Of a stretch of 47,188 bases of DNA, positions 27,463-47,188 are shown one piece after another. The notes under the pieces were generated by a model. It was not told where the DNA came from. It made no database searches and worked only from the letters and a program-made list of their open reading frames with translations. The position numbers and the translations under genes are program-made. Position 1 is the first letter of the stretch, and each line of letters opens with the position of its first letter. Source of the DNA: Rhodospirillaceae bacterium (lineage in GTDB: Bacteria; Pseudomonadota; Alphaproteobacteria; Rhodospirillales; Rhodospirillaceae); the NCBI GenBank assembly GCA_002691085.1, contig NZGX01000046.1, positions 2,364-49,551 of the forward strand, written 5' to 3'.

Positions 27463-27780
27463 TTATGCTGGAGGCGCAACTTTTAGAACTAAACCATCTA
27501 GTTTATCATCTATAAAAATTTGGCAGCTAAGGCGTGACTCAGACTCAACATAATATTGCTCATCTTCAAGAAGTTCGATTTCCTCATCAGACATCTCATT
27601 TATACGATCTCGCCATTCCTGATCAATATAAACATGGCACGTTGCACATGAACAACAGCCTCCACATATAGCTTCAATATCTAAGTCGTTATCCCTAATT
27701 ACCTCCATAAGTGAGTCACCAGCATCCGCATCTAGGTCATGCTTCTCACCATTACGATCAGTTACATAAATTTTTGGCAT
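27463..27780 (-). CDS. [2Fe-2S] ferredoxin, adrenodoxin/putidaredoxin type
   Basis: Cys pattern CGGCCSCATCHV plus a distal Cys in LSCQI. I use the ATG at 27780 (MPKIYVTDRNG), because the 18-codon upstream extension in the track has no family support. Confidence 0.85.
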   Translation of the reverse strand: MPKIYVTDRNGEKHDLDADAGDSLMEVIRDNDLDIEAICGGCCSCATCHVYIDQEWRDRINEMSDEEIELLEDEQYYVESESRLSCQIFIDDKLDGLVLKVAPPA

Positions 27781-27937
27781 AAAAACTCCATAAAGACACA
27801 AATTTGCACTGTTAATAATGACTACTAAATGCAAAAATAAATATAAAAAAATACTTTAAAAATAGATAGTCTTAATACAATGTAAAAAACAATAATTCAA
27901 TAATATAGAAACTATCTCAAAATAAAATGGAGTAGGT

Positions 27938-39933: not shown

Positions 39934-41055
39934 ATGGAAACACACCTCATGAAAAAAAAATCTATTATTATTATATCTGCATCAATAATTATAAATGCTA
40001 TTGTATTTTCTAACTCAAATGCTCAGTTTTTTGGTGCACCTGAAAAGCATTTTGATGAATACGAAAAACCACCCAAGCCTGATTATAGCAAAGAGTCAAG
40101 TTGGGCGGCTCTTCCAGATCGACAAGATGCTGCTGATGTGTTCCCTGAAAACTCTTTATATAAAGAAAATCAACCTTCTGCAAAAGTTGATGTATTTTAT
40201 ATTCACCCTACAACCTACCGAAATGCAAAAAATTGGAACCAAGATATTAACCTAGAAGAGGTTAATACCTGGACTGATTTAAGCCGTGTTTCTCGTCAAG
40301 GCAGTATTTTTAATGCATGCTGTAAAGTATTTGCACCAAGATACAGACAGGCCGCATTCGGAGCAACATCATCAAAGGAAAGTGGAAAGCTTGCATATGA
40401 CTTCGCCTACCAAGACGTACTAAGTGCATGGAAATATTACATTAATAACTTCAACCATAACCGTCCATTTATAATTGTTGGCCACAGTCAGGGGGCACTT
40501 CATGCCTTCAACTTAATTAAGGAAGAAATTGATAAGTCAAAATATTTTAAAAATATGGTTGCTGCATACATTATTGGTATACCTGTGTTAAAAGGACAGA
40601 TTGAGTTATCAATGAAGAATACTTCAATATGTAAAAAAATATCTGACATAAACTGTATAGTCTCTTGGAATACTTTCACCATGGGTTCTGATGCTTCAAT
40701 TTATAAGAAAATGGCAGTATCTCGTCTCGGTGAAGGACTTGAAGCAAAAGCAGACAAGGGCCTAGTATGCTGGAATCCAACGTCAAATTATATTGATTTA
40801 AACAAAATAAAACCAAACATATCCAATTTGGGGCCTATACCAACAGTTAAAAAAGGTGGAGAACTTCCTGATTTAGCTGAAAAAATCAAAGCTAAATGTG
40901 ATGATGGTATTTTATTTGCCTCTCCACCAAATTCTAAAGAATTTGATTTATTTACCCTTCCAGGAGGAAGTCTTCATATGCACGATATGGAGCTTTTCTA
41001 TGAAAATATAAGAATAAACTCTATTCTGAGATCAAAATACTACACTGTAAATTAA
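39934..41055 (+). CDS. Exported DUF3089-like alpha/beta hydrolase
   Basis: 373 aa with a signal peptide, VDVFYIHPTTY, and a nucleophile elbow (GHSQGA). Confidence 0.6.
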   Translation: METHLMKKKSIIIISASIIINAIVFSNSNAQFFGAPEKHFDEYEKPPKPDYSKESSWAALPDRQDAADVFPENSLYKENQPSAKVDVFYIHPTTYRNAKNWNQDINLEEVNTWTDLSRVSRQGSIFNACCKVFAPRYRQAAFGATSSKESGKLAYDFAYQDVLSAWKYYINNFNHNRPFIIVGHSQGALHAFNLIKEEIDKSKYFKNMVAAYIIGIPVLKGQIELSMKNTSICKKISDINCIVSWNTFTMGSDASIYKKMAVSRLGEGLEAKADKGLVCWNPTSNYIDLNKIKPNISNLGPIPTVKKGGELPDLAEKIKAKCDDGILFASPPNSKEFDLFTLPGGSLHMHDMELFYENIRINSILRSKYYTVN

Positions 41056-41251: not shown

Positions 41252-43687
41252 ATGATGGCAGAAATTTTTAAAGTTGCCATTGTAGGATCAGGACCGGCTG
41301 GATCAAGTGCCGCAGCTAGGGCAGCCAAGCTAGGCATGAGCCATATATTGATTGAGAGACAAGATCATATATCTGATACAATTTTTAAGTATCAGAAAGG
41401 TAAATTTGTCATGGCAACTCCTGATTTTTTGCCTCTTCGCTCTGATTTAAATTTTCAAGCCGGTAAAAGAGAAGAAATATTAGACGTTTGGGATAACGGG
41501 CTAGAGGATTGTAAGGTAAACGTAAAATTTGACACCGAAGTAACAAGTATAAAAAAAGAAAAAAATTTTACTATAACCTATGCAGATGGAAAAACTTGTG
41601 AAGCGGAAAACGTAATTCTATCAATCGGCCTTCAGGGAAATATAAATAAATTACCATGTGAAGGGGCTGAACTTCCCTTAGTACAATATCAACTGGACGA
41701 CCCAGAAGAATATGAAGCTGAAACTATTGTTATTATAGGTGCAGGAGATGCAGCAATTGAGAACGCTGTTGCTTTATCAAAACAAAATACTGTTATTATA
41801 GTCAACAGAAGAGCTGAATTTGCTAGAGCAAAACAAGGCAACCTATCTTTGATAAGTGAGGCAATCGAAAAAGGTAATGTCGAAGCCTACTATGAAGCCT
41901 CCCCAGTTAAAGTTGAAAAAGATTCGATTACCTTAAAAACAGCTGATGGTGAAGCACGTGTACCATGTAATCGGATTATTGCAAGATTAGGAGCATCTGC
42001 CCCAAGACGTTTTGTTGAATCATGTGGGGTTGATTTTCCAGATAAAGAAGAATTAAAAAAAGACCCAAAAAAAAGACCTGACCCTAGAGTACTTCCTGAA
42101 GTTAGTGCTCAATACGAGTCAAATGTACCCGGTCTTTTTATTATTGGGGCCCTTGGTGGATACCCACTAATTAAACAAGCAATGAACCAGGGTTATGAGG
42201 TTGTTGAATATATTGGGGGAAACAAAATTCCTCCGGCGGATGAACCTCTTCTTGTTGAAAAATTCTCTGTCTTAAATAATCAAAATGTAGATGATGTATT
42301 AGAAACAATAAGAAAAAATATTCCTATCTTTGAAAAACTCAATACACTTCTTTTAAGAGAAGCAATACTAGAATCAAATGTTCACGCTTTTAAAAAAGAC
42401 GATACCATTTTTAAGCGTAATGATTACTCCAATACCTTTTATACAATATATGTTGGAGAGGTTGGTATTCTCGTTGATCCAAATGACCCTTCACAAGTCG
42501 TAACACTTAATCAAGGAAACTTTTTTGGCGAAATGGGACTTATCTCAGGCAGAAGACGTGCTGCAACTGTAAAAGCAATATCTGATTGCATAGTTTTTGA
42601 GACCCCAAGAAGGACAATGCTAAAGCTAATTCAATCAGTTGAAAGCGTAAAAGATAATTTAGATAAAGTCTCAATGCTTCGCCAAATTCAAACACACCTC
42701 ACCCCAGGTGTTGATGCTAGTGATTTACAAGAATTAATTGAGACAGCAGAAATAGAAAATTTTTCTGCAGGAGATGTCATTTTTAACCAAGGCGATGAAG
42801 GTGATCATATGCACCTTATCCGATCAGGATCATGTACAGTTTCTGTCAAAGTCGGAGGTAAAGACATTGTACTCAGTTATGTCCCTTCAGGTAATTATAT
42901 TGGAGAAATGGCTTTACTGTCCGACCAACCAAGATCAGCAACTGTCAAAGCTGCTCATAATACCCAAACTATAAGATTAACCGGAAAAGCCTTCAAAGAT
43001 GTTTTGAAAAAAAATAGTAGTATAAAAAATAGTGTTGAAAAGAAGTTTAAAGAAAGAATTAATCAAAATGAAAAAATGGAGGGACAACCCGAGGCAGGAA
43101 ATATTATTCAATTCCTAATAGAGCAAGGCGTTGGTGAAGGAACAGATGTTTTACTGATTGATGAAACTTTATGTATTCATTGTGATAATTGTGAAAAAGC
43201 CTGTGCAGAAACACATGGTGGTTTATCTAGATTAAATAGAGAGGCTGGTCCTTCTTATGCCTCTATACATGTACCGACTTCATGCAGACATTGCGAGCAT
43301 CCTCATTGTATGGCTGACTGTCCTCCCGATGCCATACATAGAGCACCAGATGGAGAGGTCTTCATAGATGATAGTTGTATTGGATGTGGGAATTGTGAAA
43401 GGAATTGTCCATATGGGGTAATTCAATTGGCCGCCCCCCCACCAGAAAGATTTAATTTATTCTCATGGCTGTTGTTTAATAAAGGGCCGCCCCCAGGGGA
43501 TTTAAGAAAATCAACAGATTATAAAAACAAAAAAAAGAAAGATGAAAATCAAATTAAACAAGCCGTTAAGTGTGATATGTGTAAAGATATTGAAGGAGGA
43601 GCATCCTGTGTTAGGGCTTGCCCAACTGGAGCTGCTGCCCGAGTAAGCCCTGAGGAATTCATGTCCATAACAAGCCTTACAAGCTAG
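41252..43687 (+). CDS. Fusion protein: FAD/NAD(P)H pyridine-nucleotide oxidoreductase + 2 cyclic-nucleotide-binding domains + four-cluster [4Fe-4S] ferredoxin module (DmsB/NrfC-like)
   Basis: 811 aa. Contains FAD-binding GSGPAGSSAA and NAD(P)-binding IGAGDAAIENA with VNRR, but no TrxR-type CxxC. The two cNMP phosphate-binding cassettes are FFGEMGLISGRRRAATVKA and YIGEMALLSDQPRSATVKA. The four Cys groups are CIHCDNCEKAC, CRHCEHPHCMADCP, CIGCGNCERNCP and CDMCKD-x6-CVRACP. Confidence 0.85.
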   Translation: MMAEIFKVAIVGSGPAGSSAAARAAKLGMSHILIERQDHISDTIFKYQKGKFVMATPDFLPLRSDLNFQAGKREEILDVWDNGLEDCKVNVKFDTEVTSIKKEKNFTITYADGKTCEAENVILSIGLQGNINKLPCEGAELPLVQYQLDDPEEYEAETIVIIGAGDAAIENAVALSKQNTVIIVNRRAEFARAKQGNLSLISEAIEKGNVEAYYEASPVKVEKDSITLKTADGEARVPCNRIIARLGASAPRRFVESCGVDFPDKEELKKDPKKRPDPRVLPEVSAQYESNVPGLFIIGALGGYPLIKQAMNQGYEVVEYIGGNKIPPADEPLLVEKFSVLNNQNVDDVLETIRKNIPIFEKLNTLLLREAILESNVHAFKKDDTIFKRNDYSNTFYTIYVGEVGILVDPNDPSQVVTLNQGNFFGEMGLISGRRRAATVKAISDCIVFETPRRTMLKLIQSVESVKDNLDKVSMLRQIQTHLTPGVDASDLQELIETAEIENFSAGDVIFNQGDEGDHMHLIRSGSCTVSVKVGGKDIVLSYVPSGNYIGEMALLSDQPRSATVKAAHNTQTIRLTGKAFKDVLKKNSSIKNSVEKKFKERINQNEKMEGQPEAGNIIQFLIEQGVGEGTDVLLIDETLCIHCDNCEKACAETHGGLSRLNREAGPSYASIHVPTSCRHCEHPHCMADCPPDAIHRAPDGEVFIDDSCIGCGNCERNCPYGVIQLAAPPPERFNLFSWLLFNKGPPPGDLRKSTDYKNKKKKDENQIKQAVKCDMCKDIEGGASCVRACPTGAAARVSPEEFMSITSLTS

Positions 43688-43696
43688 GAATAAACA

Positions 43697-44518
43697 GTGC
43701 ATGAATCCCTCCTAATTTATAAAAAATTTAAATACCTTAAATTGACTCTCACCACTGTCATTTTATGTATCGTTTTATATTTGTATCACTCGCCTATTGG
43801 AAGCCCTAATGGGGGAACATGGTTAGGGTATACACTTGGCACACTCGCTGCTTTGATAATGTTTTGGCTAGCATGGTTTGGTGCAAGAAAAAGATCCTAC
43901 AATAAATCAAAAGGGAATCTTGAGGAGTGGGCCTCTGCTCATGTGTATCTGGGTTTAGCTCTAGTAGTAATATCTACTTTACATAGTGGTTTTCAGTTTG
44001 GATTAAATATCCACACGATTTTATATTTCTTAATGATGATAGTAATAATTAGTGGGATTATAGGAGTTTATTTCTATCTAAAATTTCCAAGCCTTATAAC
44101 AAAAAATAGAAATGGTCTGACGACAGAAATGATGTTAACTCAAATTACTGAGATAGATGAAGATATAAGAGAGCTATCAATGTCTCTCGATGATTTTACT
44201 GTTGATTTAATGACAAAAGCAATTGAGGAAACAGTTATTGGAAAAAGTTTTATTATTAAACTTAAAGGAGTTGACCCAGATTGCCATACCTCCTTAGCAA
44301 GAAAACATCTAAGAGAGAAAAAATTTTCTGGAAACAATAAGATTAGAGAGCAGCTTTTATCCAAACTAACTAGAAAAGAGAAAATCTTAGATCAACTGAG
44401 AAATGATCTTAAAATGAGATCTCTTTTACAAATCTGGCTATACATACATGTGCCTTTCACATTTGCTGCACTGGCAGCATTGATAATACATATTTTTTCT
44501 GTTTTTTATTATTGGTAG
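43697..44518 (+). CDS. 5-TM membrane protein with two H-x13-H pairs (putative di-heme b-type transmembrane electron carrier)
   Basis: 273 aa. GTG start with AGGA 6 nt upstream. H82/H96 lie in predicted TM3 (HVYLGLALVVISTLH) and H251/H265 in TM5 (HVPFTFAALAALIIH). A hydrophilic insert of about 110 aa separates TM4 and TM5. Confidence 0.6.
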   Translation: MHESLLIYKKFKYLKLTLTTVILCIVLYLYHSPIGSPNGGTWLGYTLGTLAALIMFWLAWFGARKRSYNKSKGNLEEWASAHVYLGLALVVISTLHSGFQFGLNIHTILYFLMMIVIISGIIGVYFYLKFPSLITKNRNGLTTEMMLTQITEIDEDIRELSMSLDDFTVDLMTKAIEETVIGKSFIIKLKGVDPDCHTSLARKHLREKKFSGNNKIREQLLSKLTRKEKILDQLRNDLKMRSLLQIWLYIHVPFTFAALAALIIHIFSVFYYW

Positions 44519-44524
44519 AATAAA

Positions 44525-46285
44525 TTGAAAATACTTTTTTCACATATCACTAGAAAAAAACGCGGGGGTATTGCAACACGCAATGAGTATGCTGAAGCCG
44601 ATACAATCACGATTGGTAGAAGTACAAGTTGCGAATTAAGTCTTTTAGATCCAAGAGTTCATCTAGAACATGCAAAAGTTGTAAAAAAACTAGATACTTA
44701 TGAAGTGATTGCAGCAGAATATACGCTCATAGAGGTTAATGGGGAACTTGTTGATAAAATAACTTTAAAAACTGGAGATACTTTCCTAGTTGGTCCATAC
44801 AAAATTATTTTTGAAAGTCCTTCTAGTGACGCAGATCTTAAATTATCAATTGAACTTACTAAAAATCTAAGAAACCAGGTCAGTGATCTAATCTCTAGAT
44901 CTAATATTGACTCATCAAACTTTGGTATATCTAAAAGAACATGGTCATGGTCACTTTTCTCAATAATTACTGCACTGTTTCTTATGATTCCTCTCTTAGT
45001 AATAAATTCTTCAAAAGAGAATTTAAGTAGTCTTGACCCAGAGGATCTTAATAAAAGCTCAACAAGCCTAGTTAGCGTTTGGAGTACAGGTGAAATATCA
45101 TCTCCACATAATTTTTTTGCACATGATTGTGAAGTATGTCATGAGAAACCTTTTGTTCCAGTACAAAATAATTCTTGTGCTAAATGCCATGATGATATCC
45201 AACATCATGCAGATACAAAACTTTTCCCAAGTGCGAGTCTGAGTGACTTAAGCTGTCAATCTTGTCATAAAGAACACCAAGGTAAAATAACCGTTGTAAA
45301 GAATAACCAAGATTTTTGTGCAAGTTGCCATGACGCAATCCAAGACGAACCAAATTCTCTACTTCGTAATGTTTCAGATTTTGGGAAAAATCATCCGCAA
45401 TTTAATCCTACTGTAATAATTGATAAAGATAAAAATACAAATAGAAGCCTTTCAATTGGGGGAGATCCCAAACCCATTGAATTCTCCGGGTTGCTTTTTA
45501 ATCACGCCGTTCACCTCAGAGAAACTGGTGTAAGGCATCCTAATGATGGAATAATTGACCTAGAGTGTAAAGATTGTCATGTTTCTGATAGCGGTGGAGT
45601 TTCAATGTTACCAATTTCATTTAAAGAACATTGTAACAGTTGTCACAAACTTTATTTCGACTCATCCCTTCCTGAAAGAGAATTATACCACGGAGATACA
45701 AAAGAACTCTTTATTCAAGTTGAGAATGTTTATAACTCTATTGCATTTCAAGGGGGTTATATAGGGAAAGATGCGCCGAATGTAATCAGGCGACGCGCAG
45801 GCCAGACTCTTAGCCAAACTGAGCGTGTTGAAGCAGCAGAATGGGCAAAAAGAAAAAAAGAACAAGTTCTTGATGGTCGTTTTGGAAAGGATAGGTGTGC
45901 TGAATGTCATCTCATTAAAAACAATGAGGAAAGATGGACAATACAATCAGTAAATATCACAGATAGCTGGTTTCCTAAAGCAAATTTCACCCATGAGAGT
46001 CATGAAGATATGGAATGTATTAGTTGCCATGAAGCAAACAGGTCAGAGCAAGCCACAGATGTAATTCAACCTTCTATAGAAATTTGTCAAAGCTGTCATG
46101 GTGGTGAAAATGCTAGGTCTAAAATTCCATCAACATGTGTGACATGTCATGGTTTTCACTTTGAACATATGTCACCAATCTATCCAATTAATGAGGTCAA
46201 AGTTAAAGAAACGACAATACTCTCAAGCCTTTCAGAGAAGAATCTAGCTTTATTTAACAAAAGAGAAAATAATGAAATACCATAA
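44525..46285 (+). CDS. FHA-domain / single-TM / decaheme c-type cytochrome (cytochrome c3/c7-like)
   Basis: 586 aa with a TTG start. FHA pattern: ITIGRS...HLEHAKV...VNGELV...GDTFLVGPYKIIF. TM helix WSLFSIITALFLMIPLLVI at about aa 141-160. Ten CxxCH motifs between 45128 and 46150: CEVCH, CAKCH, CQSCH, CASCH, CKDCH, CNSCH, CAECH, CISCH, CQSCH, CVTCH. Confidence 0.85.
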   Translation: MKILFSHITRKKRGGIATRNEYAEADTITIGRSTSCELSLLDPRVHLEHAKVVKKLDTYEVIAAEYTLIEVNGELVDKITLKTGDTFLVGPYKIIFESPSSDADLKLSIELTKNLRNQVSDLISRSNIDSSNFGISKRTWSWSLFSIITALFLMIPLLVINSSKENLSSLDPEDLNKSSTSLVSVWSTGEISSPHNFFAHDCEVCHEKPFVPVQNNSCAKCHDDIQHHADTKLFPSASLSDLSCQSCHKEHQGKITVVKNNQDFCASCHDAIQDEPNSLLRNVSDFGKNHPQFNPTVIIDKDKNTNRSLSIGGDPKPIEFSGLLFNHAVHLRETGVRHPNDGIIDLECKDCHVSDSGGVSMLPISFKEHCNSCHKLYFDSSLPERELYHGDTKELFIQVENVYNSIAFQGGYIGKDAPNVIRRRAGQTLSQTERVEAAEWAKRKKEQVLDGRFGKDRCAECHLIKNNEERWTIQSVNITDSWFPKANFTHESHEDMECISCHEANRSEQATDVIQPSIEICQSCHGGENARSKIPSTCVTCHGFHFEHMSPIYPINEVKVKETTILSSLSEKNLALFNKRENNEIP

Positions 46286-46697
46286 GTTTTTTTTAATGAG
46301 TCTTATAATAATTTTAACCTTCACTAAAACTGTAATTAGTGAGACAGTAATATTAGAAAGTGAAGCAAAGTTTTTAGGAAAATTAAGCTCTAAAGACCTT
46401 GAGAGTCAATTTTCAATTAATGTAAAACTCAATGGGGATATTCCACTTGCAACATATGTATCAGCGCGTTTTCAAAATAATCAGCCAAAACAAAGATTAG
46501 CCAATAGTTTATGGATAGATTGGAATGAGAGAGTCGAAACTTTACAGAATAACGGTTTTGCGCCAACTGAAAATGACATGCTAATATTCGATATTTTTGA
46601 GGAGAAGCTTGATTATACTTTCCTACCAATAATTATAACTATCTCATACTTAGGCCATGATAGTTTAAAATCAGGATATTATATAATAGACCAATGA
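46272..46697 (+). CDS. Small exported hypothetical protein
   Basis: 141 aa with a signal peptide (FFLMSLIIILTFTKTVISE). Its start overlaps the cytochrome gene by 14 nt and its stop overlaps the next start (ATGA). Confidence 0.5.
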   Translation: MKYHKFFLMSLIIILTFTKTVISETVILESEAKFLGKLSSKDLESQFSINVKLNGDIPLATYVSARFQNNQPKQRLANSLWIDWNERVETLQNNGFAPTENDMLIFDIFEEKLDYTFLPIIITISYLGHDSLKSGYYIIDQ

Positions 46698-47188
46698 AAA
46701 TACTTTTTTATATTGCCTTTATTTTCTTTACTGTTTTTTATTCAGAAAAAGCTCTTTCTGAATTCCTAAGCATTTCTGATGTTAATCGTATTGTTGGGCA
46801 AGCAAAAGGTGAGGCATCTGCATTAGGTATTAATAATGCTGTAATTGCAATCTCAGACAGAGTTGGCAATATTCTTGCAGTCTATGCAATGAATCCTGAT
46901 GATATACCCAATATTACAATTACTTCAGGAAGAGGTATAGCAATAGGCAATGGACTGGAGAGCCTCTCATTACCAATCACTCCATTGGCCGCAATTTCAA
47001 AAGCAATTACGGGCGCCTATCTCTCTTCTTCAGGTAATGCATTCACTACAAGAACAGCCAGTCAAATTGTTCAAGAATTTTTTAATCCTGGGGAAAAAGG
47101 ACAGCCGGCTGGGCCCCTATTTGGTGTGCAGTTTAGTCAGTTAGCCTGCTCAGATCTAATGAGGTTTGGAGAAAACATTGGCATTGGT
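46694..47188 (+). CDS. Exported GlcG/HbpS-like (DUF336) domain protein, 3' partial (runs off the window)
   Basis: I translated 165 open codons by hand from the ATG at 46694 to the window end. Not in the ORF track because it is open-ended. Has a signal-like N-terminus. LSISDVNRIVGQAKGEASALGINNAVIAISDRVGNILAVY and AISKAITGAY resemble the GlcG/HbpS heme-binding fold family (from memory). Confidence 0.45.
   Translation, partial: MKILFYIAFIFFTVFYSEKALSEFLSISDVNRIVGQAKGEASALGINNAVIAISDRVGNILAVYAMNPDDIPNITITSGRGIAIGNGLESLSLPITPLAAISKAITGAYLSSSGNAFTTRTASQIVQEFFNPGEKGQPAGPLFGVQFSQLACSDLMRFGENIGIG

Follow-up and report, generated by a model that had tools for sequence, protein, structure and literature searches.

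Introduction

CymA/NrfH, CbcL, ImcH, Tmc and Hmc combine a membrane-anchored periplasmic multihaem cytochrome c with a cytochrome b, and Tmc and Hmc add a cytoplasmic iron-sulfur (FeS) protein; we know of no forkhead-associated (FHA), flavin/NAD(P)H or cyclic nucleotide monophosphate (cNMP) domain in any of them. An FHA fold beside a membrane helix is found in SctD (YscD/PrgH/EscD), where an N-terminal cytoplasmic FHA fold that lacks the phosphothreonine-binding residues provides a docking surface for cytoplasmic partners and is followed by one transmembrane helix and a large periplasmic domain. Here we examine a gene from a 47,188-nucleotide (nt) stretch of DNA of a Rhodospirillaceae bacterium (contig NZGX01000046.1; the whole stretch, 34.7% G+C, is called the window). 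Its 586-aa product joins an FHA-like domain in the cytoplasm, through a single membrane helix, to ten haem motifs on the outside.

Proteins that fit this description have been mentioned before. A pangenome of the Gallionellaceae lists, with no comment, a "Forkhead-associated protein" with ten CXXCH motifs in 27 genomes (PMC10734462). A 2023-24 preprint named a ptdABCDEFG cluster in Alphaproteobacteria of oxygen-deficient zones, in which PtdE binds cNMP and has 4Fe-4S clusters, PtdF is described as a membrane protein like ferric reductases and PtdG as a "periplasmic deca-heme protein", with a function that is "completely unknown" (bioRxiv 10.1101/2023.11.21.568154). A preprint of May 2026 described a membrane-associated nonahaem protein of Ferrigenium straubiae, "NHC", with a cytosolic FHA domain; it stated that the combination of FHA and multihaem domains was previously unreported, and it left the function open (bioRxiv 10.64898/2026.01.22.701106). 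Related clusters are read in this literature as electron-transfer complexes of unknown function (bioRxiv 10.1101/2023.11.21.568154; bioRxiv 10.64898/2026.01.22.701106), and we found no follow-up on ptd- or NHC-type clusters.

Matched to these preprints by description and neighborhood, the window gene is a member of a large, already named family (PtdG/NHC type), and the cluster around it is a variant with a partner set other than PtdA-D. We propose, with about even confidence, that this cluster encodes a nucleotide-gated transmembrane electron conduit in which a degenerate FHA domain would serve as a phospho-independent cytoplasmic docking domain.

An FHA-like domain, one membrane helix and ten haem motifs in a single gene

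The gene spans positions 44525-46285 of the forward strand and lies in a compact operon. An 811-aa gene is followed, after a 9-nt gap, by a 273-aa gene and, after another 6 nt, by the 586-aa gene, which overlaps a 141-aa gene by 14 nt; the 141-aa gene in turn overlaps the next gene by 4 nt. Translation of the 586-aa protein begins at a TTG, 6 nt past the end of the 273-aa gene; it is preceded in frame by TAG-AAT-AAA, of which TAG is the stop of that gene. The first methionine inside the protein is residue 154. The TTG start is sound because homologues share this start position, with MKxL..TRK, and use ATG, GTG or TTG.

Ten CxxCH motifs occupy residues 202, 218, 244, 265, 348, 370, 458, 498, 521 and 538 (nt 45128-46150), as against a mean of 0.04 and a maximum of one in residue shuffles of the same protein. 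The sole hydrophobic segment, with a Kyte-Doolittle peak of 2.41, is a transmembrane helix at residues 142-160 (44948-45004, forward strand). It lies within a helix at residues 137-166 of the AlphaFold2 (AF2) model, and R138 and P156 are invariant. A search for an N-terminal signal peptide found none in this protein, and the stretch that follows the helix is net acidic. c-type haems are attached outside the cytoplasm. Because there is no signal peptide and only one helix, flanked by the invariant R138 on its N-terminal side and by acidic residues on the other, and because the haems must be attached outside, the N-terminus is placed in the cytoplasm and the haem motifs beyond the membrane.

For measures of conservation we drew 74 near-full-length homologues from 80 loci in two proteobacterial classes, and built an alignment of 66 sequences with 25-90% identity to the window protein. 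All 74 homologues are single open reading frames (ORFs) with exactly ten CxxCH motifs and the same order of parts. The idea that an FHA gene and a cytochrome gene were joined by a sequencing or assembly error found no support and deserves almost no credence. It is refuted by the single ORFs of the homologues and by the presence of the unchanged 586-aa protein on five independent contigs and in NCBI as MAI06560.1 (a "hypothetical protein" of Alphaproteobacteria bacterium TMED87, with near-identical copies labelled "cytochrome c3 family protein"). It is also refuted by a profile search in which most of the best 150 matches run unbroken from profile position 1 to about 560, and hence include the FHA domain.

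An earlier note on this DNA, made from the sequence alone, had described just this protein. The FHA domain, single helix and ten CxxCH motifs that it reported were all borne out by Pfam, AF2, Foldseek and hydropathy, the span of the motifs to the nucleotide, and its topology (N-terminus in, haems out) and its TTG start with no in-frame ATG nearby both held up. Its worry that the ORF might be two genes split by an error was not borne out. We regard its observation as confirmed and its interpretation as partly supported, as described below.

The 273-aa and 586-aa genes share a reading frame (window 44516-44527). We considered a read-through fusion of the two ORFs and rejected it: the predicted periplasmic C-terminus of the five-helix 273-aa protein would place the FHA domain on the wrong side of the membrane, and the sharing of frame is lost in Marinobacter.

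The family is large and mostly aquatic

The profile search, run over 1.84 billion representatives, returned 1839 clusters (50% identity) at E<=1e-30. A scan with a single motif, one genome per species, found relatives in 107 species. Carriers are mostly marine and freshwater Alphaproteobacteria, joined by Marinobacter, Agarilytica, Oceanicoccus, Paraglaciecola, Lysobacterales and the cultured Oceanibacterium hippocampi. A second word-indexed protein search, made with the alignment, added no new relatives, as generic haem words swamped the candidates. The fusion had been called unusual in the earlier note; given the number of clusters and species, and the prior mentions in the literature, that description is overstated.

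All ten haem motifs and ten further histidines are invariant

The decahaem domain covers residues 186-545 (45080-46159, forward strand) and can be divided into a c3-like tetrahaem unit at residues 195-270, a c7-like unit that starts from FNHAVH, a helical insert at residues 392-450 and a C-terminal c7-like trihaem unit at residues 487-542. Cytochrome_C7 (PF14522, 46.9 bits against a cut-off of 24.8), Cytochrom_c3_2 (PF14537, 43.4 against 25), Cytochrom_CIII (PF02085, 31.3 against 22.9) and Paired_CXXCH_1 all exceed their Pfam cut-offs. The C-terminal unit matched Cytochrome_C7 and, in a profile search of the PDB, the GSU1996 nanowire domains (3ov0) and, locally, chain 6r2q_A, which we take to be MtrA, though its table label is cystathionine beta-synthase.

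All 30 residues of the CxxCH motifs are invariant across the 66-sequence alignment, as are ten further histidines (H195, 228, 251, 290, 327, 330, 389, 490, 493 and 545). With one invariant distal histidine for each haem, the alignment points to ten bis-His c haems. The F-x-H-x-x-H pattern of c3/c7 cytochromes, which the earlier note had picked out, is present and conserved in FNHAVH (residues 325-330; F325, H327, H330) and FTHESH (residues 488-493; F488, H490, H493), and is a c7 signature.

Membership in several described families was rejected. The best NCBIfam match was the TmcA tetrahaem family, though at 38.7 bits against a cut-off of 114. The MtrA/DmsE decahaem family (TIGR03508) scored 24.0 bits against 192.2, and NapC/NirT (PF03264) gave no match at E<=1. 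NrfH appeared in the PDB profile search at E=0.034, over just 30 residues.

An FHA fold with an apparently degenerate phosphothreonine pocket

The N-terminal domain (residues 1-111; 44525-44857, forward strand) passed both a profile test and a structure test, and so the FHA assignment holds. PF00498 matches residues 28-90 at 28.0 bits against a cut-off of 20.7 (E=2.9e-6), and it matches 47 of the 66 homologues at E<=0.001. The AF2 model, built on 16 sequences, gives eleven strands with a predicted local distance difference test (pLDDT) score of 85-91 across the domain. The best 50 Foldseek matches in the PDB are all FHA domains (GarA, OdhI, Ki67, Rv0020c, DgcB and others), with a probability of 1.00; target-normalized TM-scores against GarA and OdhI are 0.72-0.80, and the top FHA matches in the PDB profile search have E values near 1e-7. 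PF16697 (Yop-YscD_cpl), the Pfam model of the FHA-like cytoplasmic domain of SctD/YscD, also matches 40 of the 66 homologues at E<=0.001. The window protein reaches 22.9 bits, under the cut-off of 33.2, and the Marinobacter homologue 40.7 bits, above it. The FHA domain is the more variable part of the protein, with a mean pairwise identity of 31% versus 41-51% for the haem domains.

We then compared the domain with GarA, residue by residue. G31-R32 is the canonical Gly-Arg of the beta3-4 loop, in which the Arg contacts phosphate; the Gly is kept in 66/66 homologues and the Arg in 55/66, and the Arg and part of the loop are lost in one gammaproteobacterial clade. In the beta4-5 loop, V-S-R-R-H-A of GarA aligns to V45-H46-L47-E48-H49-A50, and His46 replaces the phosphate-binding Ser. 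Across the 66 homologues this position holds Leu (25), Ala (10), Arg (8), Pro (5), a gap (5) or Met (4), with Ser outside these top six, and the position after it, an Arg in canonical domains, is Leu in 54. The beta6-7 loop of GarA, G-S-x-N-G-T, aligns to A64-E65-Y66-T67-L68-I69, with loss of the functional motif; family-wide, Ala, Gly, Ser or Leu stands in place of the conserved Asn, and Ile, Val, Leu or Phe in place of the Thr that contacts phosphate. N72-G73 aligns with a second, structural vN(G/r) motif of FHA domains.

We conclude that the domain has an FHA fold whose phosphothreonine pocket, judged by alignment, is degenerate across the family. The earlier note had said that the GR and NG signatures are kept and that the Ser of S-R-x-H is lost, the motif reading H-L-E-H. 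The loss and the GR are borne out by the alignment; NG is present only as the structural motif and does not stand for the functional loop. The note's suggestion of a non-phosphorylated partner is plausible given the missing Ser.

The domain could instead be a true phosphothreonine reader, with a Ser/Thr kinase that phosphorylates the 811-aa protein, the 273-aa protein or another partner, whereupon FHA binding turns electron flow on or off. The retained Gly-Arg fits this idea, and the nearest matches in sequence and fold, GarA and OdhI, bind phosphopeptides. Moreover, two Marinobacter genomes have a Pkinase gene 15 nt 5' of the flavo-FeS gene. However, the Ser, the Arg after it and the Ser, Asn and Thr of the beta6-7 loop are absent family-wide, the Marinobacter FHA domains likewise lack the canonical Ser and Asn, and the gammaproteobacterial clade without the Arg has a shortened loop as well. 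Only 2/80 loci, both from Marinobacter, have an adjoining Ser/Thr kinase gene, and tblastn of the Marinobacter kinase against the window gave no match; we therefore reject a kinase as a feature of the family, and consider a phosphothreonine reader improbable.

The Marinobacter arrangement is limited to loci L067 (1046-4545) and L068 of the 80: a caspase-domain/Sel1-repeat gene precedes the kinase gene, which encodes 476 aa.

A flavo-FeS protein and a predicted cytochrome b are encoded upstream

The order of the operon is kept in nearly all of the 80 loci. The 273-aa gene lies directly 5' of the decahaem gene in 75/80, with a gap of 6-40 nt, and because a spacing of 6-9 nt is kept in most loci, translational coupling of the two genes is suggested. 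Where a locus extends far enough, the 811-aa gene is nearly always part of the cluster, and most often adjoins the 273-aa gene on its 5' side. In a group of freshwater alphaproteobacterial metagenome-assembled genomes (MAGs; L049, L052, L053, L060 and L061), the cluster is kept with its order permuted, so that the flavo-FeS gene follows a gene for a second, LVIVD-type decahaem protein.

The 811-aa protein (41252-43687, forward strand) fits the description of PtdE. Pfam recognizes Pyr_redox_2/3, two cNMP_binding domains and Fer4, which correspond to a FAD/NAD(P)H domain at residues 1 to about 330, two cNMP-binding domains at about 360-610 and a ferredoxin domain at about 634-800. We found no transmembrane helix or signal peptide, consistent with a cytoplasmic protein. 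Four CxxCxxCxxxC-type motifs hold sixteen cysteines that do not vary among 60 homologues, and in the same set the flavin domain has no conserved redox CxxC. Partial NCBIfam matches are to DmsB, NarH, FdnH and HybA. Four-cluster ferredoxins such as these dock on membrane cytochromes b, and in NarHI and FdnHI the cytochrome b is dihaem. The second cNMP domain has a canonical G-E…P-R-S-A-T-V-x-A cassette. After the second Rossmann motif, GAGDAA, the flavin domain carries NRRAEFARAK at residues 184-193 (window 41801-41830), which we take to resemble the HRRDxFRA 2'-phosphate site of thioredoxin reductase, a hint of NADPH over NADH.

The 273-aa protein (43697-44518, forward strand) fits the description of PtdF and is a predicted di-haem b subunit with five transmembrane (TM) helices. 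On its cytoplasmic side it carries a helical insert of some 120 aa (residues ~128-247), and the AF2 model has a mean pLDDT of 84.8. Five histidines are invariant in 76 homologues: H82 and H96 on TM3, H251 and H265 on TM5, and H106 at the outer end of TM4. The members of each pair are 14 residues apart, a classic spacing for two stacked b haems, and the two helices are parallel. PF01292 (Ni_hydr_CYTB) matches 41/45 members weakly, and the window protein at 25.1 bits, under the cut-off of 30.1. Since this match is below the curated cut-off, it is from the His pattern only that we infer two b haems. A weak Ferric_reduct match occurs in only 1/45 members, and the homologue from Oceanibacterium bears the UniRef name "Ferric reductase like transmembrane component". 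Foldseek found no significant fold for the model in the PDB (best E 0.38, to TorS four-helix bundles), and a PDB profile search gave coiled-coil noise only; a ferric-reductase, NarI or FdnI fold was thus not confirmed by fold or sequence.

These observations bear on how electrons might enter the protein. PF01292 takes in quinone-reactive cytochromes b such as FdnI and HyaC, and Geobacter CbcL unites dihaem b and multihaem c domains. The 273-aa protein might accordingly be a quinol oxidase or quinone reductase, with the FHA-decahaem protein linking the quinone pool to the periplasm in the manner of CymA, NrfH or CbcL, and the 811-aa protein as a second input or a mere regulator. The weak similarity to PF01292 favors this reading, and the Ferrigenium authors prefer, for their own FHA-nonahaem protein, a link to the quinone pool by analogy with CymA/NrfH (bioRxiv 10.64898/2026.01.22.701106). 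Against it, the window decahaem protein has no PF03264 match, no quinone site is recognizable in the sequence, and a simple quinol dehydrogenase would have no need of a strictly co-conserved flavoprotein with a four-cluster FeS domain. We judge coupling to the quinone pool to be unlikely, though a serious candidate.

The genes downstream encode probable envelope partners

The 141-aa gene (46272-46697, forward strand) encodes a secreted or membrane-tethered protein with an N-terminal hydrophobic segment. It has no match in Pfam or NCBIfam and was recognizable by tblastn only in alphaproteobacterial clusters (34 loci). Its stop overlaps the ATG of the next gene (ATGA), the 5' part of an HbpS-like gene that is cut by the end of the window (46694-47188, forward strand). 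The full gene is present on contigs with an identical decahaem protein, at 6156-8027 of L081 and 2935-4806 of L082, and encodes a secreted protein of about 623 aa with two or three HbpS-like repeats (GlcG, haem-binding/degrading; PF03928). An HbpS-like gene comes after the decahaem gene in 66-68 of the 80 loci.

The contigs with the identical decahaem protein (L081-L083) continue with genes for the 141-aa, the 623-aa HbpS-like and a 587-aa protein, and then for one of at least 781 aa. Longer loci encode three proteins with signal peptides: an HbpS-like one of about 625 aa, one of about 596 aa and one of about 1260-1275 aa. The 587-596-aa protein (L082 4848-6611; L003 12036-13826) is secreted and belongs to no Pfam family. 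Because its C-terminal residue is Tyr or Phe in 59/59 homologues (…FNLILTY) and it has a weak match to Alginate_exp, we regard it as a probable outer-membrane beta-barrel; the downstream half of the cluster would then be a porin-cytochrome pair.

The 1260-1275-aa secreted protein (L003 13835-17662; L067 13670-17452; L082 6621-8963, partial) carries ten CxxCH motifs, beta-propeller repeats of the LVIVD type and an N-terminal region that resembles MtrC. No other protein of the cluster is so well conserved: the copies of an alphaproteobacterial MAG and of Marinobacter are 61% identical. The protein may form the surface or catalytic end of the system. Sequence searches of the PDB with the 596-aa and 1275-aa proteins found no relatives. 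In the part of the literature that we saw, nothing relevant connects LVIVD with a cytochrome, and there is no description of a partner set of this type (HbpS-like, barrel and LVIVD decahaem).

A minority of loci have the trio of 811-aa, 273-aa and 586-aa proteins with other partners. In L034 (9691-15574) and L057 (9708-15510), Ptd-type partner genes follow the trio on the opposite strand. They encode a pentahaem protein of 621-627 aa with a weak match to Thermochromatium c552 (5ze8), an 839-aa protein with two Cds6_C NTF2-like domains and a tetrahaem protein of 455-464 aa with a c554-like domain. The three window proteins share 38-39%, 46-47% and 54-55% identity with the corresponding trios of these loci. 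As the same trio occurs with different periplasmic and outer-membrane sets, it behaves as a plug-in module; its occurrence in at least two partner sets suggests a general-purpose supply of electrons.

Comparison with Ptd, NHC and other systems

The window trio is like PtdE, PtdF and PtdG of marine Alpha- and Gammaproteobacteria (Alphaproteobacteria UBA11136 and others) in its adjacent cNMP/4Fe-4S protein, ferric-reductase-like membrane protein and decahaem protein, and L034 and L057, with their Ptd-like partners, carry homologues of all three window proteins. It differs from Ptd in that no pentahaem PtdA, porin PtdB or 839-aa PtdB-like protein, or tetrahaem PtdD adjoins it. In addition, the Ptd preprint calls PtdG periplasmic, with no mention of an FHA domain or membrane anchor, gives the number of FeS clusters as two and lists the FAD protein, PtdC, separately, whereas here there are four Cys motifs and the flavin domain is part of the 811-aa protein.

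With NHC of Ferrigenium the window protein shares a cytosolic FHA domain, one TM helix, multihaem domains outside, the lack of a signal peptide, and neighbors with five TM helices and [4Fe-4S] clusters. NHC differs in having nine haem motifs rather than ten, a betaproteobacterial Fe(II)-oxidizing host and flanking nirK and SHP-like genes. Homology to NHC, and to the Gallionellaceae protein with ten CXXCH motifs, is judged from their descriptions only. The NHC cluster was expressed under all conditions tested, and its function is given as unknown (bioRxiv 10.64898/2026.01.22.701106).

The protein has the plan of SctD, with a periplasmic haem wire instead of ring-building domains and no secretion genes nearby. 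The combination of a multihaem c domain with a membrane cytochrome b resembles that of CymA/NrfH, CbcL, ImcH, Tmc and Hmc, and the cytoplasmic FeS protein resembles that of Tmc and Hmc. A further likeness is to NOX and FRE enzymes, in which electrons go from NAD(P)H to flavin, to two b haems whose His pairs are spaced by about 13-14 residues on two TM helices, and to an acceptor outside. The window proteins, however, show no significant sequence or fold match to NOX/FRE, NarHI or FdnHI, divide the functions among separate polypeptides and add a ten-haem c wire.

A proposed nucleotide-gated electron conduit

In the conduit that we propose, electrons from NAD(P)H would pass to the FAD of the 811-aa protein and on to its four [4Fe-4S] clusters, and the two cNMP domains of the same protein would gate the flow. 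The 273-aa protein would move the electrons across the membrane through two b haems, held by the His pairs on TM3 and TM5, and the anchored 586-aa protein would receive them in the periplasm on its ten bis-His c haems. The HbpS-like protein, the probable outer-membrane barrel and the LVIVD decahaem would come next, forming a trans-envelope conduit that runs to, or from, a substrate at the surface. The FHA domain would clamp the haem subunit to the flavo-FeS protein and/or to the ~120-aa loop of the five-helix protein. Such contacts would be in keeping with the strict synteny. We take phospho-independent docking to be the likeliest role because the phosphothreonine pocket has been lost, because the domain is on the same side of the membrane as the flavo-FeS protein and the loop, and because the layout is like that of SctD/YscD. 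A more specific form of the proposal, which we hold only tentatively and would not call likely, makes the trio a quinone-independent, cNMP-gated NADPH dehydrogenase of free-living marine bacteria that would send electrons from the cytoplasm by way of two b and twenty c haems to the surface, with the FHA domain as a phospho-blind clamp.

Several points count against the conduit as we have drawn it. The 273-aa protein has no detectable solved homologue, its Pfam match is sub-cut-off, and a quinone site on it is possible. R32 is kept in 83% of family members, which leaves room for an acidic or phosphorylated ligand, and the partner that we name for the FHA domain is a guess. In the AF2 model, pLDDT is below 50 over much of residues 163-320, as the model has no haems and its alignment is shallow, so that haem packing and the length of the wire are not modelled. 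The architecture, the topology logic, the conserved ligands, the degenerate pocket and the synteny are observed; the b haems, the contacts between subunits, the direction of flow and the terminal substrate are inferred.

Electrons might instead flow inward, from an external or periplasmic donor (Fe(II), reduced S or N species, or a cathode) through the decahaem protein, the b haems and the FeS/FAD protein to NAD(P)+. Related clusters occur in Fe(II)-oxidizing Gallionellaceae and a biocathode MAG, and FeS and flavin chemistry is reversible. On the other hand, transfer from bis-His c haems to NAD(P)+ (about -320 mV) would be uphill and against the membrane potential, no energy-coupling subunit is recognizable in the cluster, and many of the carriers look, from their taxon names, like marine heterotrophs. 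Inward flow is therefore, in our estimation, distinctly unlikely.

It is still harder to credit a redox sensor, in which the haems would sense the redox state of the periplasm and the FHA domain would relay it to the cytoplasm with no bulk transport. FHA and cNMP-binding domains are indeed typical signaling modules. Ten conserved bis-His haems, a FeS chain, a flavin, a second decahaem protein and a probable barrel nevertheless suggest a wire rather than a sensor, and no kinase, GGDEF or DNA-binding output domain is conserved in the cluster.

If the conduit is real, it would be a widespread means by which proteobacteria connect NAD(P)H in the cytoplasm with the periplasm and the cell surface, in carriers that include abundant uncultured marine Alphaproteobacteria such as TMED87. 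It would also have features that are not found in the classical Mtr, Pcc, CymA and CbcL systems: a cNMP-gated input of flavin and four FeS clusters, a new five-helix His-rich subunit, and an FHA domain as the anchor of a cytochrome. Should the NADPH dehydrogenase reading be true, the trio would be a bacterial counterpart of NOX and ferric reductases, built from FeS and multihaem parts, and its possible uses in oligotrophic seawater would include the reductive acquisition of iron or haem or the reduction of an extracellular substrate. The family also offers a clean natural case of an FHA domain in which phosphothreonine reading appears to have been lost throughout. Cultured carriers, such as Marinobacter salexigens and Oceanibacterium hippocampi, make the question directly testable.

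Flanking genes

To probe the idea of iron uptake, the region 5' of 41252 was scanned for a Fur box of the E. coli type; the best score, 11/19, does not exceed background and is uninformative for Alphaproteobacteria. The only other CxxCH of the window is in a 123-aa ORF at 27463-27834 on the reverse strand, which may encode a monohaem cytochrome c. Upstream of 41252 are ordinary metabolic genes, among them genes for a DUF3089 protein, a beta-lactamase-family protein and an aldo-keto reductase. The DUF3089 gene (39934-41055, forward strand; 373 aa, with a signal-like N-terminus) is directly 5' of the cluster, and a DUF3089 gene is also found upstream in L006, L008 and L009, with 45-47% identity.

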